DNA of 64,000 nucleotides from positions 634,666-698,665 of the forward strand of contig MU006098.1 of assembly GCA_010093705.1 (NCBI GenBank), read 5' to 3'. The number at the start of each line of letters is the position of its first letter. Position 1 is the stretch's first letter. The notes beneath the pieces were generated by a model. It had not been told where the DNA came from and ran no database searches. It saw only the letters and a list, made by a program, of their open reading frames with translations. The stretch comes from Patellaria atrata CBS 101060 (lineage: Eukaryota). The translations under genes were made by a program, and so were the position numbers. Positions 11,383-59,542 of this stretch are shown here, piece by piece.

Positions 11383-12573
11383 CTATTCCTTTCCACACTC
11401 CTCCGCCCTAAGCCGCGGATCTCTCCCGCGACGTATAGAATCCTGCCTCCACTCCTCCAACTGCTTCCGGAGCGGGTCGACGAGCCTCTCCAACTCTTCT
11501 TTCCTACCACCCAGCGGTTTCTCCAACTGAGTAATCTCCTCTCCACTCTCCCCCCTATATTTTGCCTCTAAAATGGTCTCTTCCATCTCATGAATAAAAT
11601 CCAACTCCTTCTCCCACTTCCTCAGACTATACCTCTGCTCGAACCACGCATTGAACCTCTCCTCGCCGCCAAAACACACCCCAAACCCATCGCAGTAACA
11701 GATATGCATTTTGGGGCAGTGGATACTCTGCCCCGAAAATGCGAACTGCCATATATACTCCCACACCCTGCCGGCGACATAGTCGCTCAGTGAGGTTTTG
11801 AGGAGCCAGGAACGGTACCACACCCACTGTTCCAATGGAACACTTCGTATTCTCTCCCCGCTCACAGCAAACTGCGCACAGCACGGTTGCGCCAGGGTAT
11901 GCGGCAATGGGGCCCTGGGGCCGAAAATCTCGCTCCACACAGTTTTCAGAATGTCTTGCTCGGGCTTATCTTCATCTGGGCCCGCATTCGGTTGGATCCA
12001 GGCTGGACACCCAGGATCCCAGTGGCACCGGAGGTTCATGTATCCCTCTCTTTGCACGCGGTGGGGGTTCAGGTTCTTTACCATCTCGATCGCGTCGTAG
12101 TCGAGGAGCTCGTCGTTGTGCCATGCTTGCCTATGCGCGTGCATGAACACTGTGACGTCGGGGAGGGAAGCGTAGTTGTCGATTATATACGTCAGGTAAA
12201 TCATTGCTTCGTGACCTTTGTTTTGCGGGGGGTGTAGCGGGGCGGAGGGGTCGTCGGCGGTGTAGATTGCGAGTTGCAGGTTGGGAAGGGTGGAGAGTTC
12301 CGATGTCCAGGAGACATCGTCTTCGAGGGTACGGCCAAGGACCAGAGTTATGGTGAAGTTGTGGGTGGCAGGAAGGGGGGTTCCAGGATGGAAGGTGGGT
12401 TGAAGAGCCGGGGAAGTGGGAGGGCCTTGGGAGAGCAGGAGGGTTGGTTGATGGCGGTTGAGGGACTCATCTTGGACGGATTGAGGAAGATCGGAATGGT
12501 TTGAATAGAGAATGAGAAGAAGTATGGATGTTGAGAGGATGAGGAGAAATATGAATCGATGACGCGCTGGCAT
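11383..12573 (-). CDS. DUF3431 family type II membrane protein
   Basis: N-terminal TM anchor. Motifs NKGHEAMIYLTYIIDNY, FMHAHRQAWHND, GYMNLRCHWDPGC, QPCCAQFAVS and GRVWEYIWQ are characteristic of fungal DUF3431. Confidence 0.9.
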   Translation of the reverse strand: MPARHRFIFLLILSTSILLLILYSNHSDLPQSVQDESLNRHQPTLLLSQGPPTSPALQPTFHPGTPLPATHNFTITLVLGRTLEDDVSWTSELSTLPNLQLAIYTADDPSAPLHPPQNKGHEAMIYLTYIIDNYASLPDVTVFMHAHRQAWHNDELLDYDAIEMVKNLNPHRVQREGYMNLRCHWDPGCPAWIQPNAGPDEDKPEQDILKTVWSEIFGPRAPLPHTLAQPCCAQFAVSGERIRSVPLEQWVWYRSWLLKTSLSDYVAGRVWEYIWQFAFSGQSIHCPKMHICYCDGFGVCFGGEERFNAWFEQRYSLRKWEKELDFIHEMEETILEAKYRGESGEEITQLEKPLGGRKEELERLVDPLRKQLEEWRQDSIRRGRDPRLRAEECGKE

Positions 12574-13361
12574 TGTTTGTTGATGTTGAGATCGCCGTCG
12601 CTATGCGGGATGCCGCGGATTTTAGTAGTTACATCTCCTTGCAGAGCGAATAACGTAGGCGAAATTGATAACTATGAGATTTTATAGGTATTACGGAAAG
12701 ATCATGATAGAACATAGCCGATTAAACATAAATTTGATGAAAATGGTAGTTGTACAATAGAAAGTCGCAATGCAGTTGTACAGTACAGTACCATACAGTA
12801 ACGTTACACTATATTCGGAGATGAGCTTGCATGCCTTCTACGTGTAGGGTACGTAAGCTTTGACTTTACGCGCATAACTGAAGGTAAACTGGAAATAGTG
12901 TATAGCTCATAATGCCCTAAGAAGAGGGAAGTCGTAAAAGGATGAAGACGGATATGCAACAAACAAGTGCTCTCGAAACAGCGGACATCCCAAATTCACC
13001 TCCACCTTCCCCTCCACTAGGGTTCTACCCACTGCTTTTGTCGTGATATAACCAATCAGGGCACATATTACATTAGAACTTTTCAATTCGACAGATACCC
13101 GCAGCTTAAATATACATTTCCGTATCCACCGAATGCAAAAGGACCAAGGAATCCCAAGATATCCCTGAAAGCACCTGGATCGATGTGATTGCGCCGGTGC
13201 TCCGGCAGCCGCCCACAGCATGAAGATCATACAATATCCACCAAGAAGTATCAGTCCTGGAAGAGATGAGAACGTGAATGAAGGGAAATGACGAAGAAAA
13301 GGATATACAGCCCCGGATCACTCCGTCACCATTACTCCCACCCCTTCATCTAGCACACGTA

Positions 13362-18758: not shown

Positions 18759-20536
18759 TATGTCTTGTAGAAACGACTTTTGTTTGTAACCTCGAGCCAG
18801 GGTAGATAATTTAGAGTACACTTGAGTGCTAGATACAACAGATGTAGTTATACTCTGACCTATCAGCCTCGATATTCCTCAGACTTTGTACGGTTTTTAA
18901 ATTTACTACTGGTAGGCCGTTGAGCGTGTAGTATCAAAAGAGCTCTACTGTCAGTACGGCCACGTCTGTATACGACTGAGAGTATTCCATATGCTCTCGA
19001 TTCCCCAAGAGCACACAAATCAACATCATAGGTTATTTGTGTACTACGCACTCCGCGTACGTCTTCGTCTTTCAGTGTGTTAAAATCAGAGATGAATAAC
19101 GAATTAGTGTATAGTACCATAGGTGAGAATATTCCTGGCAAGGGATAAGTACCATAGTGAAGGAGAAGATTACGTCGTGTCACGACAACACGATATTCAT
19201 CGCATTGTTCAGTTACATCAATCAAGCACTTTCACCTGAATCAGGCTGTTTCCTCCGATCCATATACTGTTATATTATAAGGGATCTTCATCTTTTCTGA
19301 GTATAGAGATTTCGATCCCGCGACTGTAGGACGATATTCCGTTAAGGGCCTCGGTTATAAACTTCGACGTCTTGACTCGGAAGAACTAACTAGTGCTCAA
19401 ACTTACCAAACACTAAAAGGACGTACCTGTGACGGAGGTTACGGTTCAACACAGTATTCGCCCAAAGCAGACATGATAAAGCGATCCAAAGCCGGGGTAA
19501 GGGGGTAGGTTATGATCTCCACATGGGTGCCACGGGGATTTGGTACCTGAAATCCGCACATCTTAAGGCCAACCATTCTTACCGCCACGGACGCGCTTCA
19601 AAGGGGTGGTAGCTTTTAGCAAATATGTGCTAACGTTCGCGCTCTCAATCCCTCACTCTCCCGATCTTGACCGCGGTCAACATCGTCAATAGAAACTCCG
19701 TGGATCGCGAGGATTTAAGCCTTCGAAGGTATGTCATTTTCTGATATTTTCTTCACGTTTAGATGATAATTGAGATGATCTGCATATATCCCCTGAATCA
19801 CAATTTTCTCGGCAGCGCATGTATGTGGCGTTTCATGATGCTTCGTTCATGTTTTCATGCATCGTCCCTTTCGCGGGGAAATGCCATTTTTCACTCTTGC
19901 TTTTGACGCGTTTGTTGGGGATTCTCAAGTTGTTTAAAGCACAAGCTATATTTGAGCCATGATATATGCAAACGAACTGAGGACTGACACAATAATTAGC
20001 GATAGATATTTACCTTTCACTTAAGGAGGCGACTTCAGCTTCGTCATTGAGCACAGCCTAGTTCATCGACTGATAGAACGTTAACGGCAAAGCAGAGAGT
20101 CCAAGAGTCCACAGACAGTTTTTCAATTATCCATCATAGCTCCGCATTAGATCGATCGGTAGTATTCGTAGTGTTGCTTCTACTGCAGTATGCATGAGTA
20201 GTTCACACTCGATGCAAAAGGCTTCCCGTTTTAATCTGAAGATCGAAACTATATCCACGTTGCCGGGTCCAAGGGGTCCATCTCAAGATTTCTTCAACTT
20301 AAGACCCTAGTCTCTCTGCCAAAAACGGTCGACAGATCTTGACGGCTAACTCGATGGGAGAGTCAGAGCTCAAGTCGACTAGGGACGAGACGCTGGTTGA
20401 GCATTCAACAGTGGTACGTGTATTACCCGAAACGTGTGTTCCCCAAGCTTAGTGTCATGTAACATCATGCGAGACCAAACCCATAAAGAGGGATGTTTGC
20501 CCCAAGAATCATTAAGAAAATTTCCCTTCACACACA

Positions 20537-22924
20537 ATGGCTCCATTCCGTGATATCAAGAAAAAGCGTTCTGCTTACAGCATTTTTCGACAGTATCCCG
20601 TAGCATCATCTAAACAATCCGGTGTATCAAAGGATGATTCGCGCCCAGTGACTGCGTTGAATGATTCTCCAATTCGAGCCGCCAGTCCCAAGGTACCACG
20701 ACCGAATTATGTTGCCAATTCAACAGTGAGAGACTTCCAGGAGACTCTCAATCCAGAACATCAACTGCAACCACCACGAACTCCAGTTCAAGACCAAACC
20801 ACACCTCACAACCTTCAGGTCGGTCTATCATCTGACGATGATGATGATGAGGTCACCACTCCTCCACAAGAGTTAACCCCTCGCGGAATACACATTCCAT
20901 CAAGAACGAGGTTAGAATTCAATCTAAAAGATTTTCGATAACGTTACTTACCTCTATTGGCGTAATAGTAGTGCGCAGAAGATTAAGAAGAGATTTCGCC
21001 CATCCAGTCGTAGCCAAAGCCGTCAGACCAGCTATTCTCTCCCCACGACCCCAGATTCCTATCCTAAAAGCTCGAGAGATTCTATTTTTTCGACCGAGAC
21101 TAGTATAACGGCTCCATCTGAACTTCCAGCATTACAGGCGAATACTTTGCCTGCTGAGGAAGCTTACAAGCTTGAACCGTTGGTTGAAGATGACCCTAAG
21201 TCCTACGATCTAATAGCTGCCGCGGATCTCGAAAACAGTAAGGAGTATTCCCTGGAAAGACGTTCAGAACAATTGTTTTCCCGCCAGCACCTCGAAGCTA
21301 TATTTGCCGACTCGGCCCAATTACAGAGGTTCACAGACTTTCTAGGGACAAAACGGTCTTCATCCATACCCGTGCTCATCTACTATCTCGATGCCCTGAA
21401 AGCGCTCAGGGCGATCAATTACGCCAATGCAGTTGCAGAAGCGCTGGAACCAATGGAAGGACACGAATTCTCAGAACATCCAGCAAGACCCACGGTAAAC
21501 TCTATTCTTGAAGAAAAGGCTGATAAAGCTTTCGAAGCTTTAGTCAAGGACGAGTTGCCCGCCTTTATAACCCACACTTTTACTGAGCTTGTGAGTGAGA
21601 GTATACACAGACGCATCACGGGGACATTACCTCCGCACCTGCGCGAAGCATCTGAAGGACTTGCGGAAGTATTTTGTCTCTCGGATCCCTCGCGACCAGA
21701 CAATCCTTTAGTGTTCGCTTCGGAAGGTAAGCTTACTGTTACTGTACTTTCGATCACTCATTAATCCTAGGCTAGAATTCCACCGCACGACACAGTATGG
21801 TGTTAGTTATGCTGTTGGGCGAAACTGTCGCTTTCTTCAGGGTCCGAAGACAAACCGGAACAGTGTTAGCAGGTTGAGAGACGCTATAAATGCTGGGAAG
21901 GAGGTCAGCGAGGTCTTCTTAAACTAGTAAGTCATTCACTTCACGCAAATACTGAATGATTCTGACGATAATCAGCCGTCGTGATGGGTCACCTTTCATG
22001 AATCTTTTAATGGTTGCACCTTTACTAGATTCCAAAGGAACTCTTCGTTATTTTATCGGTGCACAAGTCGATGTAAGCGGACTTGTCAAAGACTGCTCGG
22101 ATTTACCTGCTTTGAAGGCAATGCTGGAGAAGGACGACGCCAGCATCGTCGAGGATAAAGAAGAGACGGAAATAGACGAGTTCCAACGATTGTCAGAAAT
22201 GTTCAATCTTACGGAGCTGGATACCGTCCGACGTTACGGCGGACGCATGCACCGACAACAGATTGATGAAATCGATGACGCCGCCTCTATTATCCACCGT
22301 CCCCGTCTATTGCTGAAGCACTCTAGCCACGAGGAGTTCTCGAGACGAGCTAGTGTCGATAGCCGCAAGATGGGAAAGCTACAAGGCGTCTATCAGCACG
22401 TAAGTGACTCTAATACCCACTAAGTCCTCCCAATGACTGACGTATATCAGTACCTGCTTGTTCGCCCGTACCCTTCTCTAAGAATTCTCTTCACATCCCC
22501 ATCCCTCCGCGTTCCAGGTATCATGCAATCCCCTTTCCTGTCTCGTATTGGTAACCAAGGCCGCGTGCGGGAAGAGCTAGTCGCCGCTCTCGCAGAAGGC
22601 CGTGGCGTCACAGCTAAGGTCCGCTGGATGTCCTCAAGCGGGAATGAAGGCCGTAACCGTTGGATTCATTGCACCCCCTTACTTGGTAACAATGGCGGGG
22701 TAGGCGTATGGATGATCGTCATCGTGGATGATGAGAGTAGCTTAGCTGGTCGCAAGTTTCGTCAGGCGCCGCCGGTTGAGGCGCCGGTTGGTAGAAAGGT
22801 GAGGAGGGATAGAGATGAGTGGATGGGTGAGCATGCTCCGAGCCCGGTTGTTCATAAGGTGAGGTTGGAAGAAGGTTTCAGGCAGGGAAGTGTACATTCA
22901 ATGGACTCGTACGCTCTAGGGTGA
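20537..22924 (+). CDS. LOV-domain flavin photoreceptor of fungal RGS-LOV-DUF architecture
   Basis: Five exons. The short exon ~21776-21926, missed by the ORF track, encodes GRNCRFLQG (21817-21843). It is flanked by FCLSDPSRPDNPLVFAS and NYRRDGSPFMNLL..YFIGAQVDV. The upstream helical region is RGS-like and the C-terminal region is PAS-like. Confidence 0.88.
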
Positions 22925-23472
22925 GTGCTCTGGGGGGTAGTTTGGGATGAGGTTCTAAAAGGAATATTTGCACATGAATTGGATAGGGAATAACATGGAA
23001 GGGCTCTCAGGACATAGAGAGATCATGGAGGTAATATCTGGACGATACCCATTCTGCGATACATCTTCTAGGGAATCTTGTACTGTACATTGGTTCTACG
23101 AATTGGTATAGTACAGCATCTGGAAACTAGAAATCTGCTTGTACTGTACATATGTTACACGAAATACGAGAGTATGGGAACTGATCTGGAGTCTGTTCCC
23201 TTTTTATATGCGGTTACTGCTGTCTAATATATGCAAGCCCGGGGGCGTATCGTAAATTGGCGAGTCATGGCTTTCCATCTTCACTTTGCGCTCTTGCCCC
23301 ACTGACAGAGCTAAATAAATCATTCTCTCACACATTGATCCCCCTCACCATACCAGCATAAGAGTTTTTGTTCCTATCGTCGGGTATCCACCATAACGCA
23401 CAACCCAATTCCCTTTTTGTAACCGTTACACCCTCCGCAATCACACATCCTCCCCGCACAAAACCGGCAACG

Positions 23473-24241
23473 ATGTGCTCAACACGACCCATGAAATGCT
23501 CAGACCTGTTTAAGATCAACAAGTGCAACCTAGACCCTCTAGTCGAGACTTACAACATCGGCTTCTACCTGGAATATCTGACAAGGTGGCCGATGCTGTG
23601 TCAAGTTATCGAAAACATGCACGGACAGATCGAAGGTTACAGTGAGTCCCTACCTCCTCCCTGATCGAAAGAAAAGAAAAATCCTCAATCGAACTGCCTC
23701 AACCGGCGCGAAGACCAACTTCTATCCCTTCGATATGTGTATTGAAGCTAATGCTAACCCTTCCAGTCCTCGCAAAAACCGAAGCTTCCCCCTTCCCGCC
23801 AAACCCCTCGCCCTACGACCCGAAAACCTGCAGGAACCCGAATTATCTCCCTTGGCATGGGCACGTCACGGCGCTGACGGTAGCACCGGAGTTCCGACGA
23901 CAGGGCCACGCGAGGACGCTCACGGCGGCGTTGGAAAGGGCATGTGAGAGGGAGAATTGCTGGTTTGTGGATCTGTTCGTTAGGGTGGACAATCATACCG
24001 CCATTGCGATGTATCGGAAGATGGGGTGGGTGGATACCTCAAGGTGTTTGATTTAACTAGGAAGAAGGGAGGGTGCTAATGTCTTGTTCGCAGATACACC
24101 GTCTACCGCCGTGTAGTGGGCTACTACAATGACGATACGGATGCCTTCGATATGCGGAAACCGCTTTCCAGGGATAAGGACAAGTTGCACATTCGTAAGG
24201 ACGGAGAGGAGTTTCGCGTCGAACCGAGTGATGTCTGGTGA
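23473..24241 (+). CDS. NAT3: NatB N-terminal acetyltransferase catalytic subunit (Naa20)
   Basis: Motifs NLDPLVETYNIGFYLEYLTRWP, PWHGHVTALTVAPEFRRQG, FVDLFVRVDN, YRRVVGYY and DAFDMRKPLSRD. Two canonical introns. Confidence 0.93.
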
Positions 24242-25031
24242 AAAGCTACAAACGCTTCAAGGGTAAAAGTATGAATTGATGCATGAGAGAGAGAGAGCCA
24301 GTAGTTACCGGCTAATAACCAAGAGCAGAGGATCTTTGTCCTAGACTAGACGGAGGACTACTAGAATAACAGCACGATGGGCTATACAGAACCGAATTAT
24401 AGCCGTGCTGTCCTAATGGTACGTTGTTGCATCTTTCTCCTGATAAGCTGTTAAACCTTTCCTGGGCAGAATCGAGACTGATATCCCCAACAGATCAAAG
24501 TCTACATGGGCATAGCTGTATTTATTATACTATTTCATAACTAAAATCAGGCTTCAGAGCTTTAATTATCCACAGAGAAGTCTTAGAATCTCTAATGAAA
24601 ATTCATGCACTCATCGCTAGTTTCTCCACTAACGGATCCTCGTGTATAAACCTTCCCTCACTATGCCCTGAGAGAATACTGAGTAGAGCCTGTAATTCTA
24701 TACAATCCTCTTGACATGGCCCCTATCACGCTGGTCTCTCCAACATCCAGGCCCTTCAAGTGCGTAGTTTACACCAGTAGTAACCAGTTCCCCCATCACA
24801 TCCACAGTCTCCGTTGCATCCAACCATCTCCAAGAACGACATACATCCCGAGTCTACGCAGCAAGCTATACCTTAAACGACCAGAGTAACCACCCCATCA
24901 AACCATCTTTTCAATGCAAAAACCCCGCGAGGGGCCGTGAGTGCTCTAAATAGGGAAAGTAATAATATCACCGCGCGGAGGTATACCCATTTCTCCAAGT
25001 AAATAAAAAAAGATAAAAGGGTGCGAGAGAG

Positions 25032-25176
25032 AAAAAGAAAACCTCCGAAGAGGGAAAGTTAACCCGGCGAACGAATTTAACTTTATATTCTGGCGGAGGC
25101 GGGACTCGAACTAAGGACTTGACTGTAGGAAATTTGACTGAAAGGAAATAACCACTCGACCATTGCCGCCAGAATT
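25032..25176 (-). ncRNA. Putative Pol III-transcribed structured ncRNA of unknown family, copy 1
   Basis: Minus strand: A box TGGTCGAGTGG (25152-25162), B box GTTCGAGTCC (25102-25111), perfect 10-bp closing stem ATTCTGGCGG/CCGCCAGAAT, hairpin AAAGTTAA..TTCG..TTAACTTT, hairpin CCTC-TTCG-GAGG, then TTTTCTTTTT. Paralog at 58510. Confidence 0.7.
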
Positions 25177-27392
25177 GAAAATCCTCTCCGCTGAGGAAGA
25201 TTATGTAGAGCAGTAAGCCTCTCCCCCTTTGGCTACTTGGTTATGTGGCCAACATGAAAGCTATTTCCCCTATTGTATGATGGGTTTTTACTTAGCATAG
25301 CTCAGTCTGCATGGATCCTCTTTTGGGACCGCATCAGACATTAAGCAAGAATCAATTAATTATTTATATAGAGCAGTGTTGTTGTGACTGTTGAGTCCTC
25401 AGCACTGGGGGCTTTAAGTAAGAGTTGGGTGATGGTTTGGTCCAGTTGCGGGGATTTGGGTAAGGGAGTTTGTATCTGGTTTATGGGAATGCGGTTCTGT
25501 CACTGTAAGGTACTGTAAACGTCCGCCGCTTTAGGGTATTGAGGGCCTTGAACGGATCTGTGGGTCTCGGGTTCAGCTGGGTTTAGGGTTTGTGGGTGAG
25601 AGGGATTATGGGCATTTCAGGGGAAAAGCAGGTCATTTTCAGCACAGTCCGCTTATTCAGTACAGTTCACTCATCCAGTACAGTTCACTCAGTCAGTACG
25701 GTAGCAGTAGAAGAAACTTTCCAATGAATGGGGACGAATATCCAAGAGGAAGGCGATAGTCAACACATTATATGTTGCGCACATATTCTTTCCCTATCCG
25801 CGATGCAACATCCCCTAGGAAGCCAACTCGAGCATATCTGATTCGGGTTGTATGTACACACAGCGGGAGATGGAGATTTGAGTGACGTTATAACGAGGGA
25901 GATGGTCGGGTGAAGTACATAGTCTCCATACAGAACCCTTTGAACAGTAGAAAACTGGCCTTGACCGCGTAAGAAGCTTCAGGGACATGTTTGGAGAGAA
26001 ACAAGATCTGATAAATGATACCATGGAACTAGGGTAGATTTGAAATATGCATACAAGCACACTGAATGCATCCTAGGAGGGGGTGATAATGATGGAAAGT
26101 CCCGCCAGTCGACTTCGAAATGGTAATAAATACAGAACATATAAATGTCTAGTCAGCTCTCTGCCGTAGACTTAACTATGGAGCCACCATCCCGCTACAC
26201 CCCTAGAAGATTGACCTACCTGCCGAGACTCGTTGTAATTGCAACACTTCTTCGCTTAAACCCTCTATTGCGGTCAAGCCAAAAGCAAGCGTAAACTCTT
26301 TTGCTAATCCTAGTGCGGTTGTAGTGTGGTGGATCGCCATGAAGTGTCGTTCCACAACAGTATGTAGAATAGCATTTTCAGAGGGGTGCTATGTAGAGCC
26401 AACTCCCGAGATTGAAAGGACCGACATGGGCCTAATTCCAAATGGCGTTGCATGCGAACCAGCTCCAAAGCAGAATTCGAGGCTTCAGCGCACCTATACT
26501 TCTACACTAACAATAGCGTGATAGTTTCCTATTTTGGAAATTAACCGTGTATAATTGTTCGGGTTCGGTTCTTTTGCCGACATATAAGTGGAATATACTG
26601 CAGGATGCAGCGGGCTTGGTAGATATGCTTGCGTACCTGGATAGAGTATGTCTTTAACTACATGCCTTTTGCCGGATATTCCATATGATTTGCAAGCAGT
26701 TCAGAGAGAGTTTAGGGCAAAGGGATCGATTGCTGATAGTGTGTGGGTCGTTGAAGTATTTATGGTAGCACAACATTTAAAGGAAGGGAAGGCTACGGAC
26801 CGATTGATGATAAGATATAACTTAGCATATGCGAGACGTCGACGACATAGATGAAAGCCTACCATGTAGTCGGATAACCTTTGCGGGAATTCTAAGGTTG
26901 GTGGGAAAATCGCTCTTCCTATATCGTTGTACGAAATATCCATATCTCTGCTCAACATCGACACAGCGCGAATTATCACATTCCTAATTGAAGCCACACC
27001 TACCGCGAAGCTGGCACCAGATCCAGCGAGCGTCCCCAAATCGAGGCCTTCGCCCAGAAATCCGGAATATGCTCTTCGATTGAAATTGAAGTGATCGTAT
27101 AAACCTGCTGATCGTTCATATAGCCGCCATTTGTCATTTGCGGGGGAGACATGTACGAGACATGGGAGTTTAATCAACCAGAAAATAACCTTGCAGAACA
27201 CCAGTACGGATAACCCGGTCACTGTTCTCACCAGCCACGGTTCGAACATCATCTGGGAAATATAAATGTCGAAGGGTTGGAGAATGGAAATATTGAACTC
27301 TTACGCTTCCGCAGATTCGAAGTTCGGTGTTGAGGAGCATCTGCAAGATCCAGACACTGATAGCTGCTCTAGCGGCCTACACTCGAGGAAGG

Positions 27393-56823: not shown

Positions 56824-58122
56824 TCATTTCTTTTCATCGCCTTCTCCGCCATCCACTCGAGCATCTTTACCATCACTTTCCCCTCTCCGCCTCTTCCTGA
56901 GGCCCTTCACCACTGCATCCGTCACATCCTCAACCGTCCTACCCATCTTCCTCTCTCCTGTCTTCTCAGCCCCTAATACGGTATCCTTCGTCACCGTCTC
57001 GTAAACCTTCGCCATATTCTCAAACACCCTTTCCTCCTCCCATCCCGCGCCCTCAAACGTCCTCCCGATCTCGCTCATTTCATCTACCCAGCGATAGGCC
57101 TTCGGCGGCATTCCTACCAGCGATCTCTCCACAGACTCTAGAAGCTTAGGCGTGTAGGCGTGAAGCTCCGATTGCAGAGCGGGGAGAACCTGCAAGGAGT
57201 GCGCAGTGCTAAAGGATTGGATGGCCAAGGCGGTGAGACCCTTGGTGAGAGATGCAAAGCACGACTTTAGACCGCTAGCCGTGCCAATGGAGGGGCATAG
57301 GTGGTACGTGTTGAGAACTACGGCAAGCTCAGAGCCATTCATAGGGGCGGAGGATAGGGGATAAGGGCCGGAAAGGGGTACAGAGGGGCGGGTCCATGCT
57401 TCCGTATTGCTTGAAGAAGCACTGTCAGGCCTCAAACTCGGTGGTGCACCGATGATGCCACCGTCGATTAAGCGGATGGGAAGGTCAGAGAAGCGGTCTG
57501 CGATCGAGTTGATGGTGCGAGGGGAAGTGGCGTTGAGATCGAGGTAGTACAGGGGCTCGTTCGATGTGCGAGGTGTGCGGAGGTTACTGTAAGCGGCCAC
57601 TATTCGTTCAGCTGTTGCAATCGCATCGCGCGGTGGCACGATGGAAAGGATGTAGTCGGAGCGGGTGACCAGTTCGGCATCGGTGGGAACGAGGGTGATC
57701 GATGCGGAAGCGGCGCGGTCTGCGGTGTATCGACTGCAGGTTGTGTTAGAAGGATATTTTCATCGTATGCGAGATATCTTCCCCTTCCCGTTATTCCTCT
57801 CTCACTGCTCACCCTCACGCGAGTCTCCAGCTGTCGTGTACGATGGATCTAAAACGTATGGATGACTTGAAACTGCGCATATAACATGGTCGTACACACA
57901 TCGATGATCGGTTGTGCAGACTGAGGAACTCCAACTTTAATCAAGGGGTGATATGTACGGTACTTCGGAAATTTGAAGAAAAGATGGATGGCTGTACTGT
58001 ACCTACCTTCTACCAGTGACATTTGTCAAGACATTATAATCATGAGCTCTAAGTAGCTTTGCTATCCCAAGACCCATCTCACCAACGGAGAGGATTGATA
58101 TAGTTGCTTTCGATACAGCCAT
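56824..58122 (-). CDS. 6-phosphogluconate dehydrogenase-like NAD(P)-binding protein (DUF1932-type C-terminus)
   Basis: Rossmann start ILSVGEMGLGIA. Motifs YYLDLNATSP, IDGGIIGAPP, ASGLKSCFASLTKG and MPPKAYRWVDEM. One 273-nt intron at 57734-58006. Confidence 0.88.
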
Positions 58123-58509
58123 AGTATGTGTACAAACTTAGAAGATGGTGATTCTGGTGGGGCTGGTTGTCTCAGGCCACGTGTGTGACGATGTCACAGA
58201 TTATCATTTCCTACTTTCCCTTATTAGTAGTAGTCGCGCCGAGGTTCTACCGCTACGTGCTTGATACTAGTAGATCGCGCGACTATAACTTCTTCTTTCC
58301 TTAACTTAATCTCTTTACACTGTAGTTAGGTTATACTAGTTGCAATCCAATTCGATTCTCTACAACCGCTACGCCGTCACAACGTGCATGCTAGCTAGTG
58401 CTTTCAAAATACATAGTTCTACCCATCTATACGTAAAGTTAGATATCCCAAGGGAGAAACTGCCACAACAATACTGGCGTACATAATGGATTTCAGCAGG
58501 TGAACTTTC

Positions 58510-58675
58510 AATTCTGGGGGCAATGGCTGACTGGTGACATTTTCTTTGCCATATTTCTTTCAGTCAATTTCTTACCAGTTAAATTTCCAAGTCTTCAGTT
58601 CGAGCCTCGCGTCCGCCAGAATATAAAGTTAAATGCGTTCGCCGGTTTAACTTTTCTCTTCGGAGGCTTTCTTTT
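58510..58675 (+). ncRNA. Putative Pol III-transcribed structured ncRNA of unknown family, copy 2
   Basis: A box TGGCTGACTGG (58524-58534), B box GTTCGAGCC (58598-58606), closing stem ATTCTGGGGG/CCGCCAGAAT, hairpin AAAGTTAAAT..TTCG..GTTTAACTTT, hairpin TCTC-TTCG-GAGG, then T-tracts. Colinear with the reverse complement of 25032-25176. Confidence 0.68.
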
Positions 58676-59542
58676 GCATTTCTCCCCCCCCGGCCCTTTA
58701 CCTTCTTTTATTTATTATCATCTCAATCCATGCGTGTTGATCAACTTATCTTGTTTCCTAGTGCTGTACTGTACAACCGCTACTCTCTCAGCTTACACCA
58801 ACAAGCAAATTCGAACCTAAGAACAAGATCAAAAATGTTGCCTGGAGTCTGGAGAAACTCAGTAAAACAGACCGTGCGGTATCGGCATACCGTCGTTCTA
58901 GTTCCAAGCCGGCACTGCCGGAATCCGGCTCGCTAGAACTAGGTCTAAAGTTGAACTATACCCTAGTTCTTAGGTCACCTTGCATGTTTTTCAACAAAAT
59001 TATCAACAAACCGGTACTCGGGACTTTAGACTATATAGTTCTGCTAGGTAGTTCCATACTTTCCATCCGTTCCTCTGCGGTAAAAGGGAAAATCATAGTT
59101 CGAATTACCAGTGCGTTCCCCATATCACCAATTTTCTTCTATTCTCCCATTTCTACCTTTATACCTCCAACATAGCGAAAAATTCCCATTTGAGGGCTCA
59201 TTAGATTCAAAGTGAGTTTCATTCTTTCCTAATAATTGTGATTAGTGACCTTAAGACCTCCCCGATGGAGCATTCTGCATTTTATTGAGGTTCCGCGCTC
59301 AGTCTCAAAGGAATCTCCAACTTTTCTGTACAGGAGAGATTAATACGTTCAAAGATTTTCCAACTGCGCAGTGGACTCACCGTATGGATCTGCTAACTGT
59401 ACGGTCGCCTTGAGCGGGTCTCCAACATTCCTGGATCAAAACAACGACAATATACGAGGGACGCACAAGCGTAACTCAACAGAGTTATTCGAATAGCGTA
59501 TAGAGGCAAAGGAACGCGAATATTCCAGTACAGAATATAGCT

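Follow-up and report, generated by a model that had tools for sequence, protein, structure and literature searches.

The question raised by the minus strand at positions 25032-25176 is whether a tRNA-like promoter followed by small hairpins and a run of thymines represents a gene for a small RNA, a mobile element, or the decaying remnant of a tRNA gene. It was addressed within the whole stretch of 64 kb that was analysed, referred to here as the window, and in the contigs of two runs from the same organism. The letters of the window bear out the sequence that an earlier note had quoted for 25032-25176, and the diverged, colinear copy that it had reported 33 kb away in the opposite orientation was found at 58472-58714 on the plus strand. 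On the basis of BLAST and local alignment, the repeated unit extends beyond the quoted sequence: copy 1 spans 25000-25215 on the minus strand (216 nt) and copy 2 spans 243 nt. Both copies lie in intergenic DNA. When copy 1 was searched against the window with BLAST, copy 2 aligned over 246 columns with an identity of 72.8% and an E-value of 9e-33. Relative to copy 1, copy 2 contains insertions of 16 nt and 8 nt between its promoter boxes, as judged from the local alignment. The features of the two copies are given below, with +1 set at the A at 25175 in copy 1 and at 58511 in copy 2, both of which are putative starts.

25000..25215, minus strand: whole unit, copy 1, delimited by BLAST and local alignment against copy 2
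25200..25207, minus strand: TATA-like octamer TACATAAT, copy 1, at -32/-25; 8/8 identical to copy 2
25166..25175, minus strand: 5' strand of the closing stem, copy 1, +1 to +10, with the putative Pol III start in a TTTCAATTC context
25152..25162, minus strand: A box TGGTCGAGTGG, copy 1, +14 to +24
25102..25112, minus strand: B box AGTTCGAGTCC, copy 1, 39 nt past the A box
25090..25171, minus strand: degenerate tRNA-like domain, copy 1, 82 nt, reported by ARAGORN at 80% thresholds only
25087..25096, minus strand: 3' strand of the closing stem, copy 1, +80 to +89; 10/10 identical to copy 2
25055..25084, minus strand: hairpin 1, copy 1, 8-bp stem and 14-nt loop; 28/30 identical to copy 2
25042..25053, minus strand: hairpin 2 CCTCTTCGGAGG, copy 1, CCTC-UUCG-GAGG; 11/12 identical to copy 2
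25032..25041, minus strand: T-run T4-C-T5, copy 1, putative Pol III terminator
25000..25031, minus strand: pyrimidine-rich downstream segment with a T7 run, copy 1, similar to copy 2
58472..58714, plus strand: whole unit, copy 2, 243 nt
58480-58487, plus strand: TATA-like box, copy 2, at -31/-24
58511-58520 with 58613-58622, plus strand: closing stem, copy 2
58524-58534, plus strand: A box, copy 2, from +14
58597-58607, plus strand: B box, copy 2, 62 nt past the A box
58625-58654, plus strand: hairpin 1, copy 2
58655-58666, plus strand: hairpin 2, copy 2
58667-58676, plus strand: T-run T3-C-T4, copy 2

A self-BLAST of the whole window revealed these two copies as the sole repeat pair within the 64 kb, and a loose A-box...B-box expression, applied to both strands, matched them only. 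No third copy was found in the window with BLAST at a word size of 7, with nhmmer and a profile built from the two copies, or with the box expression. Exact-pattern scans of metagenome contigs and a scan of prokaryote genome contigs gave 0 matches to relatives of the unit. The 90-aa stop-to-stop frame that crosses copy 1, when used as a protein query, yielded two word-sharing candidates, neither of which scored at E<=10. A published description of such a family in filamentous fungi was not found in the literature covered, a body of text that is incomplete and has most subscription journals outside it.

The 82 nt at 25090-25171 are clearly of tRNA origin, with acceptor-like ends, a D-loop-like A box, and a T-loop-like B box. 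From the resemblance of the D-loop, the source is presumed to have been a class II, probably Ser-like, tRNA. As a tRNA, the domain is dead. ARAGORN at default thresholds reports 0 tRNA genes in the 64-kb window, and when the thresholds are lowered to 80% it reports a "tRNA-???" in copy 1 alone. The Rfam tRNA model RF00005 has no match at E<=10 in either copy. The assertion in the earlier note that the T-stem and the anticodon stem cannot form stands; ARAGORN finds no cloverleaf, and the D, anticodon, and T stems are all absent, such that the acceptor is the one tRNA stem left unbroken. A selenocysteine tRNA or an intron-containing tRNA was considered and rejected, given that ARAGORN with introns allowed reports nothing at default thresholds and that the unit is multi-copy. 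Note that with 0 ARAGORN tRNA genes and two copies of the unit, the family is denser in the window than are real tRNA genes. The comparison with Rfam proposed in the earlier note gave 0 matches anywhere in the window at the gathering thresholds and, accordingly, no known family. Matches obtained in E-value mode, apart from one to the vault RNA model that is considered below, are to thermometer, miRNA, and snoRNA models, all with E>1, and represent sub-threshold noise.

As had been proposed, both copies contain the A box, the B box, and the T-run of a type-2 Pol III layout. For such a layout the A box was expected about 11-20 nt from the start and the B box 30-60 nt beyond it, and the unit agrees with this arrangement: the A box lies at +14 in both copies, and the B box follows 39 nt farther on in copy 1 and 62 nt farther on in copy 2. 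The A box of copy 1 fits TRGYnnARBGG, the consensus given in PMC10137851, at all specified positions, and that of copy 2 is one position off. As oligo-T tracts, copy 1 has T4-C-T5 and copy 2 a weak T3-C-T4, and a third copy elsewhere in the genome has T5-GC-T11. The earlier note made no mention of the TATA-like box that is conserved upstream of both copies. Its eight positions are identical between the copies, whereas none of the 3 nt that precede it or of the 5 nt that follow it is shared. The dispersed 5S genes of Neurospora depend upon an upstream TATA box. Rodent 4.5S genes, according to PMC10137851, combine a type-2 promoter and a TATA-like box at -31/-24, and tRNA genes of plants and fission yeast have a TATA-like box at -30/-24; the signal positions in both copies of the unit match the layout of type-2 genes with a TATA-like box that is given there.

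The body of the predicted transcript is bracketed by a 5-nt direct repeat, 25177-25181 with 25037-25041 in copy 1 and 58506-58510 with 58667-58671 in copy 2. The first base of this repeat differs in step between the copies (TTTTC...TTTTC in copy 1, CTTTC...CTTTC in copy 2). Its score is not significant, having been reached by 499/500 shuffles, and it could represent either a very short target duplication or the context of the start and the stop. Between the boxes (25113-25151 and 58535-58596), a motif of about 12 nt resembling CAGTCAAATTTC recurs in tandem-like fashion, and the length of this region varies between the copies.

With respect to structure, the perfect 10-bp stem that joins the ends of the tRNA-like domain was confirmed in copy 1; in copy 2, 9/10 pairs form and there is one G.G clash. 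The two hairpins that follow had both been described as UUCG-capped. This holds for hairpin 2, which is a true C(UUCG)G hairpin, but not for hairpin 1, the 14-nt loop of which merely contains UUCG. The two copies are conserved unevenly. The 5' strand of the stem is identical at 9/10 positions and the B box at 9/11, whereas the region between the boxes is identical at 25/62 positions and has 23 gapped columns. From the 3' strand of the stem through hairpin 2, 51/55 positions are identical, as opposed to 49/92 in the tRNA-like interior. Paired positions are identical at 42/44 and unpaired ones at 75/123, a difference (Fisher p 5e-6) that is confounded by region. When the three-helix structure is laid over the two copies, 20/22 pairs are invariant, one C-G pair in hairpin 2 becomes U.G, and one pair is broken in copy 2; compensatory changes were seen in 0/22 pairs of this structure in the two full sequences compared.

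RNAalifold recovers the three helices together with two extra inner pairs in hairpin 1, and in that structure the only two substitutions within hairpin 1 form a swap from U.G to G.U. The two 3' hairpins are also recovered when single sequences are folded. The folding energies are unremarkable both for the whole RNAs (z of -1.61 for copy 1 and -1.82 for copy 2) and for the 3' module (z of -1.44 and -1.41), and the minimum free energy fold of copy 2, which differs from that of copy 1, retains neither the full closing stem nor hairpin 2. A pre-miRNA (milRNA) was rejected as an explanation for the unit in that its stems, of 8 (+2) and 4 bp, are too short. The uneven conservation could be due to purifying selection at each locus, or to selection upon the master copies of a short interspersed element (SINE) followed by decay, two possibilities that cannot be separated with two sequences.

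The similarity between the copies extends over some 45 nt before the putative start, with an anchored score reached by 4/2000 shuffles, and over about 40 nt past the T-run, where the score anchored over the 70 nt after hairpin 2 was reached by 1/2000 shuffles. Beyond the ends of the unit there is no similarity, the flanking scores being matched by 231/1000 shuffles upstream and 813/1000 downstream, and thus the upstream stretch is a part of the unit rather than of a larger duplication. The similarity past the T-run might be due to T-runs that serve as back-up, or else to a mobile unit of greater length. No target-site duplication was found at either copy: the longest word shared by the flanks is 5 nt, which was reached by 999/1000 and 1000/1000 shuffles, and with mismatches allowed the best score of 5 was reached by 499/500 shuffles in each copy. 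A solo LTR was rejected because the ends of the unit have no TG...CA termini. A MITE was likewise rejected; the unit begins with TACTG... and ends with ...TTATTTA, has no terminal inverted repeat, and none is seen in the self-BLAST.

The copy number in the genome was estimated from contig depth in the two runs, X1 and X2, which represent one sample. Both are taken to be DNA since they cover the stretch evenly, and their contigs may be the very source of the window. The depth of single-copy words is ~323 in X1 and ~443 in X2. In the bin at 25010-25343, it rises to 4941 and 6228, respectively, or approximately 14-15 times the single-copy value, which indicates that the unit belongs to a dispersed multi-copy family and is not a two-copy gene. 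The description "present twice" thus holds for the window but not for the genome. On the 10-kb stretch that was examined, X1 provides 43 contigs, 33 of which are 95-99% identical to it, and X2 provides 75, of which 34 fall in that range. Among the 16 of 118 pieces listed, the short ones all fall on the unit, with the exception of two 60-nt pieces at 21219-21278. One listed piece, a 44-nt contig at 25049-25092 that takes in hairpin 1 and the last part of the closing stem, has a depth of 3707 versus 323, equivalent to 11.5 copies; it is thus identical across at least 11 genomic copies and is one letter off copy 1. A listed contig over the B-box region has a depth of 734, as compared to 3707 over hairpin 1. 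The other genomic copies therefore display the same uneven conservation as the pair in the window. There are at least 11 copies in the genome, and about 20 by arithmetic, that are piecewise at least 95% alike; the figure of ~20-22 further copies of the 216-nt unit assumes that the bin depth is a position-weighted mean. The earlier note had considered that hundreds of copies with target-site duplications would identify a SINE. About a dozen to twenty close copies were indeed found, but not hundreds, and no duplications.

Single-copy contigs run unbroken over 20000-25062 and 25074-26851, and hardly any exact 31-mer of copy 1 recurs in the other copies. From these contigs, copy 1 would be a somewhat diverged member of the family, and it may be a decaying one. 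Contigs that depart from the window at a loose end provide glimpses of further copies. At 25032, another copy reads GC and T11 after the T-run and then continues into a stretch like that of copy 2; at 25120, a genomic copy has the longer version of the inter-box region, as does copy 2. Both runs also contain a contig of ~301 nt that matches only 25283-25315 (33 nt) at 95% identity or more, which points to a second repeated segment 110-170 nt upstream of copy 1. By eye, the loose ends of this contig resemble diverged sequence of the window, with flanks to about 25253-25345. The segment at 25283-25315 belongs either to a nearer paralogue whose shared flanks are longer or to a distinct repeat, and copy 2 has no significant similarity to the segment 110-170 nt upstream of copy 1.

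The Pfam domains encoded in the window are DUF3431, PigL_N, BBE/FAD-oxidase, EPL1, and PHD. The named relatives of the DUF3431 protein at 11383-12600 (minus strand) are 42-54% identical to it, with the best match overall at 55%, and they are spread over Dothideomycetes, lichen-forming classes, and Xylona. The window comes from a filamentous ascomycete and, given these low identities, from a lineage that is poorly sampled.

As an account of the observed anatomy, copy number, pattern of conservation, and absence of target-site duplications, we lean, with somewhat less than even confidence, toward a family of Pol III small-RNA genes driven by a dead-tRNA leader in the manner of the Yarrowia tRNA-RUF70 or rodent 4.5SI genes. 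The transcription, ends, processing, and function of the RNA are in this case all predictions from the DNA. TFIIIC would bind to the A and B boxes that survive within a tRNA domain unable to form a cloverleaf, and TFIIIB/TBP would occupy the conserved TATA-like box at about -30. Pol III would then start in the TCAA context and stop in the T-run, giving an RNA of ~140 nt from copy 1 and ~160-165 nt from copy 2. In that RNA, the 10-bp stem would close the dead tRNA domain, and the two small hairpins and a U-tail would follow. The dead tRNA would serve mainly as a leader that carries the promoter, and the near-invariant 3' module of ~50 nt would be the part under selection, either within the whole RNA or after its release. 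The copies would be genes, each spreading and maintained along with its promoter, rather than retroposed copies of a SINE. In support of such a gene family, all four Pol III signals, the T-run being a putative terminator, are found at working distances in both copies. Moreover, a retroposed Pol III transcript would lack the stretch that reaches back to -45, and the upstream similarity therefore supports the gene reading. Several points weigh against it. Its prior is low, in that we know of no functional tRNA-derived Pol III non-coding RNA family in filamentous fungi. A plain gene model explains the ~40 nt of downstream similarity only via back-up T-runs. In addition, some 20 close copies along with diverged ones, in both orientations and in intergenic DNA, are typical of a SINE as well, the T-run of copy 2 is weak and its A box off-consensus at one position, copy 1 may itself be in decay, the folding energies are unremarkable, and the two full sequences display no real covariation.

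The closest likeness among fungi is to Yarrowia lipolytica, for which PMC2566860 describes 13 dicistronic Pol III genes, tRNA-Trp-RUF70, with a structured RNA of ~70 nt behind the tRNA; the function of RUF70 is given there as unknown. Both systems are fungal and multi-copy; in each, an A/B-box domain of the tRNA type is followed, after a few nucleotides, by a short structured RNA that lacks its own promoter, and then by a T-track. In the unit, the segment between the tRNA-type domain and the T-track is indeed conserved, structured, promoterless, and present in many copies. The leader of RUF70 is a functioning tRNA, essential and set free by normal tRNA processing, whereas in the unit a 10-bp stem closes a leader tRNA that is dead; a functional, released leader tRNA is not to be had from the unit because the D, anticodon, and T stems cannot form. 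The 3' parts differ in length (~70 nt for RUF70 versus ~50 nt for the unit), and the expression of RUF70 has been demonstrated, whereas that of the unit is a prediction. No relation in sequence is claimed.

In promoter layout and in the link to SINEs, the rodent 4.5SI genes come closest. According to PMC10137851, these genes (BC1 is of the same kind) are, like the unit, tRNA-derived type-2 genes with a TATA-like box, in their case at -31/-24, and they lie 4-40 kb apart, as compared to 33 kb for the two copies in the window. They are also closely tied to a SINE family, B2, such that the gene and SINE readings coexist. The 4.5SI RNA differs in being mammalian and ~98 nt in length, with three genes and without a 3' two-hairpin module, whereas the unit has approximately twenty copies; the two are not homologous. 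The layout of the unit further calls to mind the TMERs. In murine gammaherpesvirus 68, each of these has one or two hairpins and a T-run behind a tRNA-like Pol III domain that is not functional. A dead tRNA-like domain, hairpins, and a T-run are found in the same order in the unit, but TMER hairpins are of pre-miRNA size, whereas the stems of the unit, at 8 (+2) and 4 bp, are too short for Dicer.

The readings that compete with a gene family differ in how the copies arose. A tRNA-derived SINE, the most serious of these and in our estimate a possible though somewhat doubtful explanation, would be a Pol III transcript from the tRNA-like head that is copied back by the reverse transcriptase of a LINE; that enzyme would recognize the 3' hairpin module and the T-rich tail, and the two copies in the window would belong to different, older subfamilies. 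PMC5063351 describes AfuSINE2 of Aspergillus fumigatus as 140-493 bp in length with degenerate boxes, no cloverleaf, and target-site duplications of 4-14 bp, and the unit, with its A/B-box head devoid of a cloverleaf, its length of 216-243 bp, and its T-rich end, matches that description. Going by PMC5063351 and PMC2104539, AfuSINE2 and Mg-SINE of Magnaporthe share with the unit a tRNA-related head, degenerate boxes, and a 3' part unrelated to tRNA, as well as a low to moderate copy number and gene-rich locations. The multi-copy state (depth ~14-15 times that of single-copy DNA, with 33 and 34 variant contigs at 95-99% identity), the placement in both orientations in intergenic DNA, and the variation between copies in the length of the T-run and of the pyrimidine tract behind it are all as expected of a SINE. 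So is a conserved 3' module, provided that master copies were selected for recognition by a LINE; PMC2104539 says that Mg-SINE mimics the 3' end of the MGL LINE. On the other hand, the ~45 nt of upstream similarity with its invariant TATA-like box, as seen in the two copies compared, lie before any start that the A box would set, and such promoter-like upstream sequence sets the unit apart from AfuSINE2 and Mg-SINE. PMC5063351 and PMC2104539 ascribe 4-14-bp target-site duplications to these elements, and to some of them 3' ends shared with LINEs, whereas neither copy of the unit has a duplication, even with mismatches allowed. Furthermore, the putative T4-C-T5 stop for Pol III falls ~40 nt short of the end of the unit, and no remnant of a LINE or reverse transcriptase and no other repeat is present in the window, which is a weak argument given that it covers 64 kb only. 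We regard it as unlikely that the copies are instead decaying relics of an old tRNA gene that was duplicated as DNA along with its flanks and is now untranscribed, or at most retained as TFIIIC (ETC-like) sites. Such decay would account for the loss of every tRNA stem except the acceptor, for the G.G clash in the closing stem, the weaker A box, and the weak T-run of copy 2, for the location of that copy in a divergent intergenic region bounded by a minus-strand ORF that ends at 57759 and, near 58835, by what may be a start codon, and for the unremarkable thermodynamic z-scores. Neutral decay should be even, however, and identities of 51/55 and 49/92 within one unit are not; what has survived the ~27% overall divergence is precisely the three helices, the start context, and the TATA-like, A, and B boxes, and some 20 close copies require an active process of spreading or maintenance.

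Two further explanations appear far less probable. A Pol II feature, either a promoter with a structured 5' leader for the neighboring genes or a short peptide gene, is judged very unlikely. The TATA-like box ~30 nt before a TCAA start context would suit it, and copy 1 does contain a 26-codon ORF (25083-25164, inside the ORF 25083..25232) that begins at the ATG in CAATGG, but the ORF of copy 2 stops after 4 codons, and the peptide is thus not conserved. Downstream, the two copies are followed by genes that bear no relation to each other, of which that of copy 1 is convergent, and the tRNA-derived A/B-box domain would be left without a role. More improbable still is a divergent vault RNA or another end-paired Pol III RNA of the vault or Y kind. 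The best Rfam match of copy 1 is to the full vault model, RF00006, at 18.1 bits (E of 0.34 in 601 nt and 0.053 in 92 nt), and the vault RNA and the unit share internal A and B boxes and an AU-rich interior that is variable, along with a U-tail and a stem that joins the ends. The match arises from the terminal stem, the A box, the AU-rich interior, and the B box, and the likeness is a resemblance of layout and not membership: the score is far under the gathering score of 34, copy 2 has no vault match at E<=10, eight stem positions in the alignment are non-canonical, and nothing in the model corresponds to the conserved 3' hairpin module, vault RNA being without these extra 3' hairpins. Vault particles are not known from filamentous fungi.

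In its more specific form, the preferred reading of a Pol III small-RNA gene family would be a multigene family of a poorly sampled group of filamentous ascomycetes, not previously described, in which a dead tRNA is kept as the stem-closed leader of a ~50-nt two-hairpin RNA, a proposal we put forward as possible but with reserve. Each copy would travel with its own TATA-like box, and the family would be the counterpart in filamentous fungi of RUF70 or of 4.5SI/BC1. The family may also stand at the master-gene stage that precedes the birth of a SINE family.

The unit is far less out of the ordinary than a lone orphan Pol III gene would be, yet it is no textbook SINE. If it is a SINE, it would be an ordinary entry on the short list of those from fungi, although one would then still have to account for the conserved upstream box and the lack of duplications. 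Under either reading, the unit should be masked or annotated lest it be mistaken for a unique gene. We know of very few fungal Pol III products beyond the tRNAs, 5S, U6, SRP, and RNase P RNAs, and RUF70 is a rare multi-copy example. If the unit is transcribed, its ~20 natural variants would provide material for probing the role of the hairpin module, and filamentous fungi, too, would be seen to reuse dead tRNA genes as portable Pol III promoters for small RNAs.
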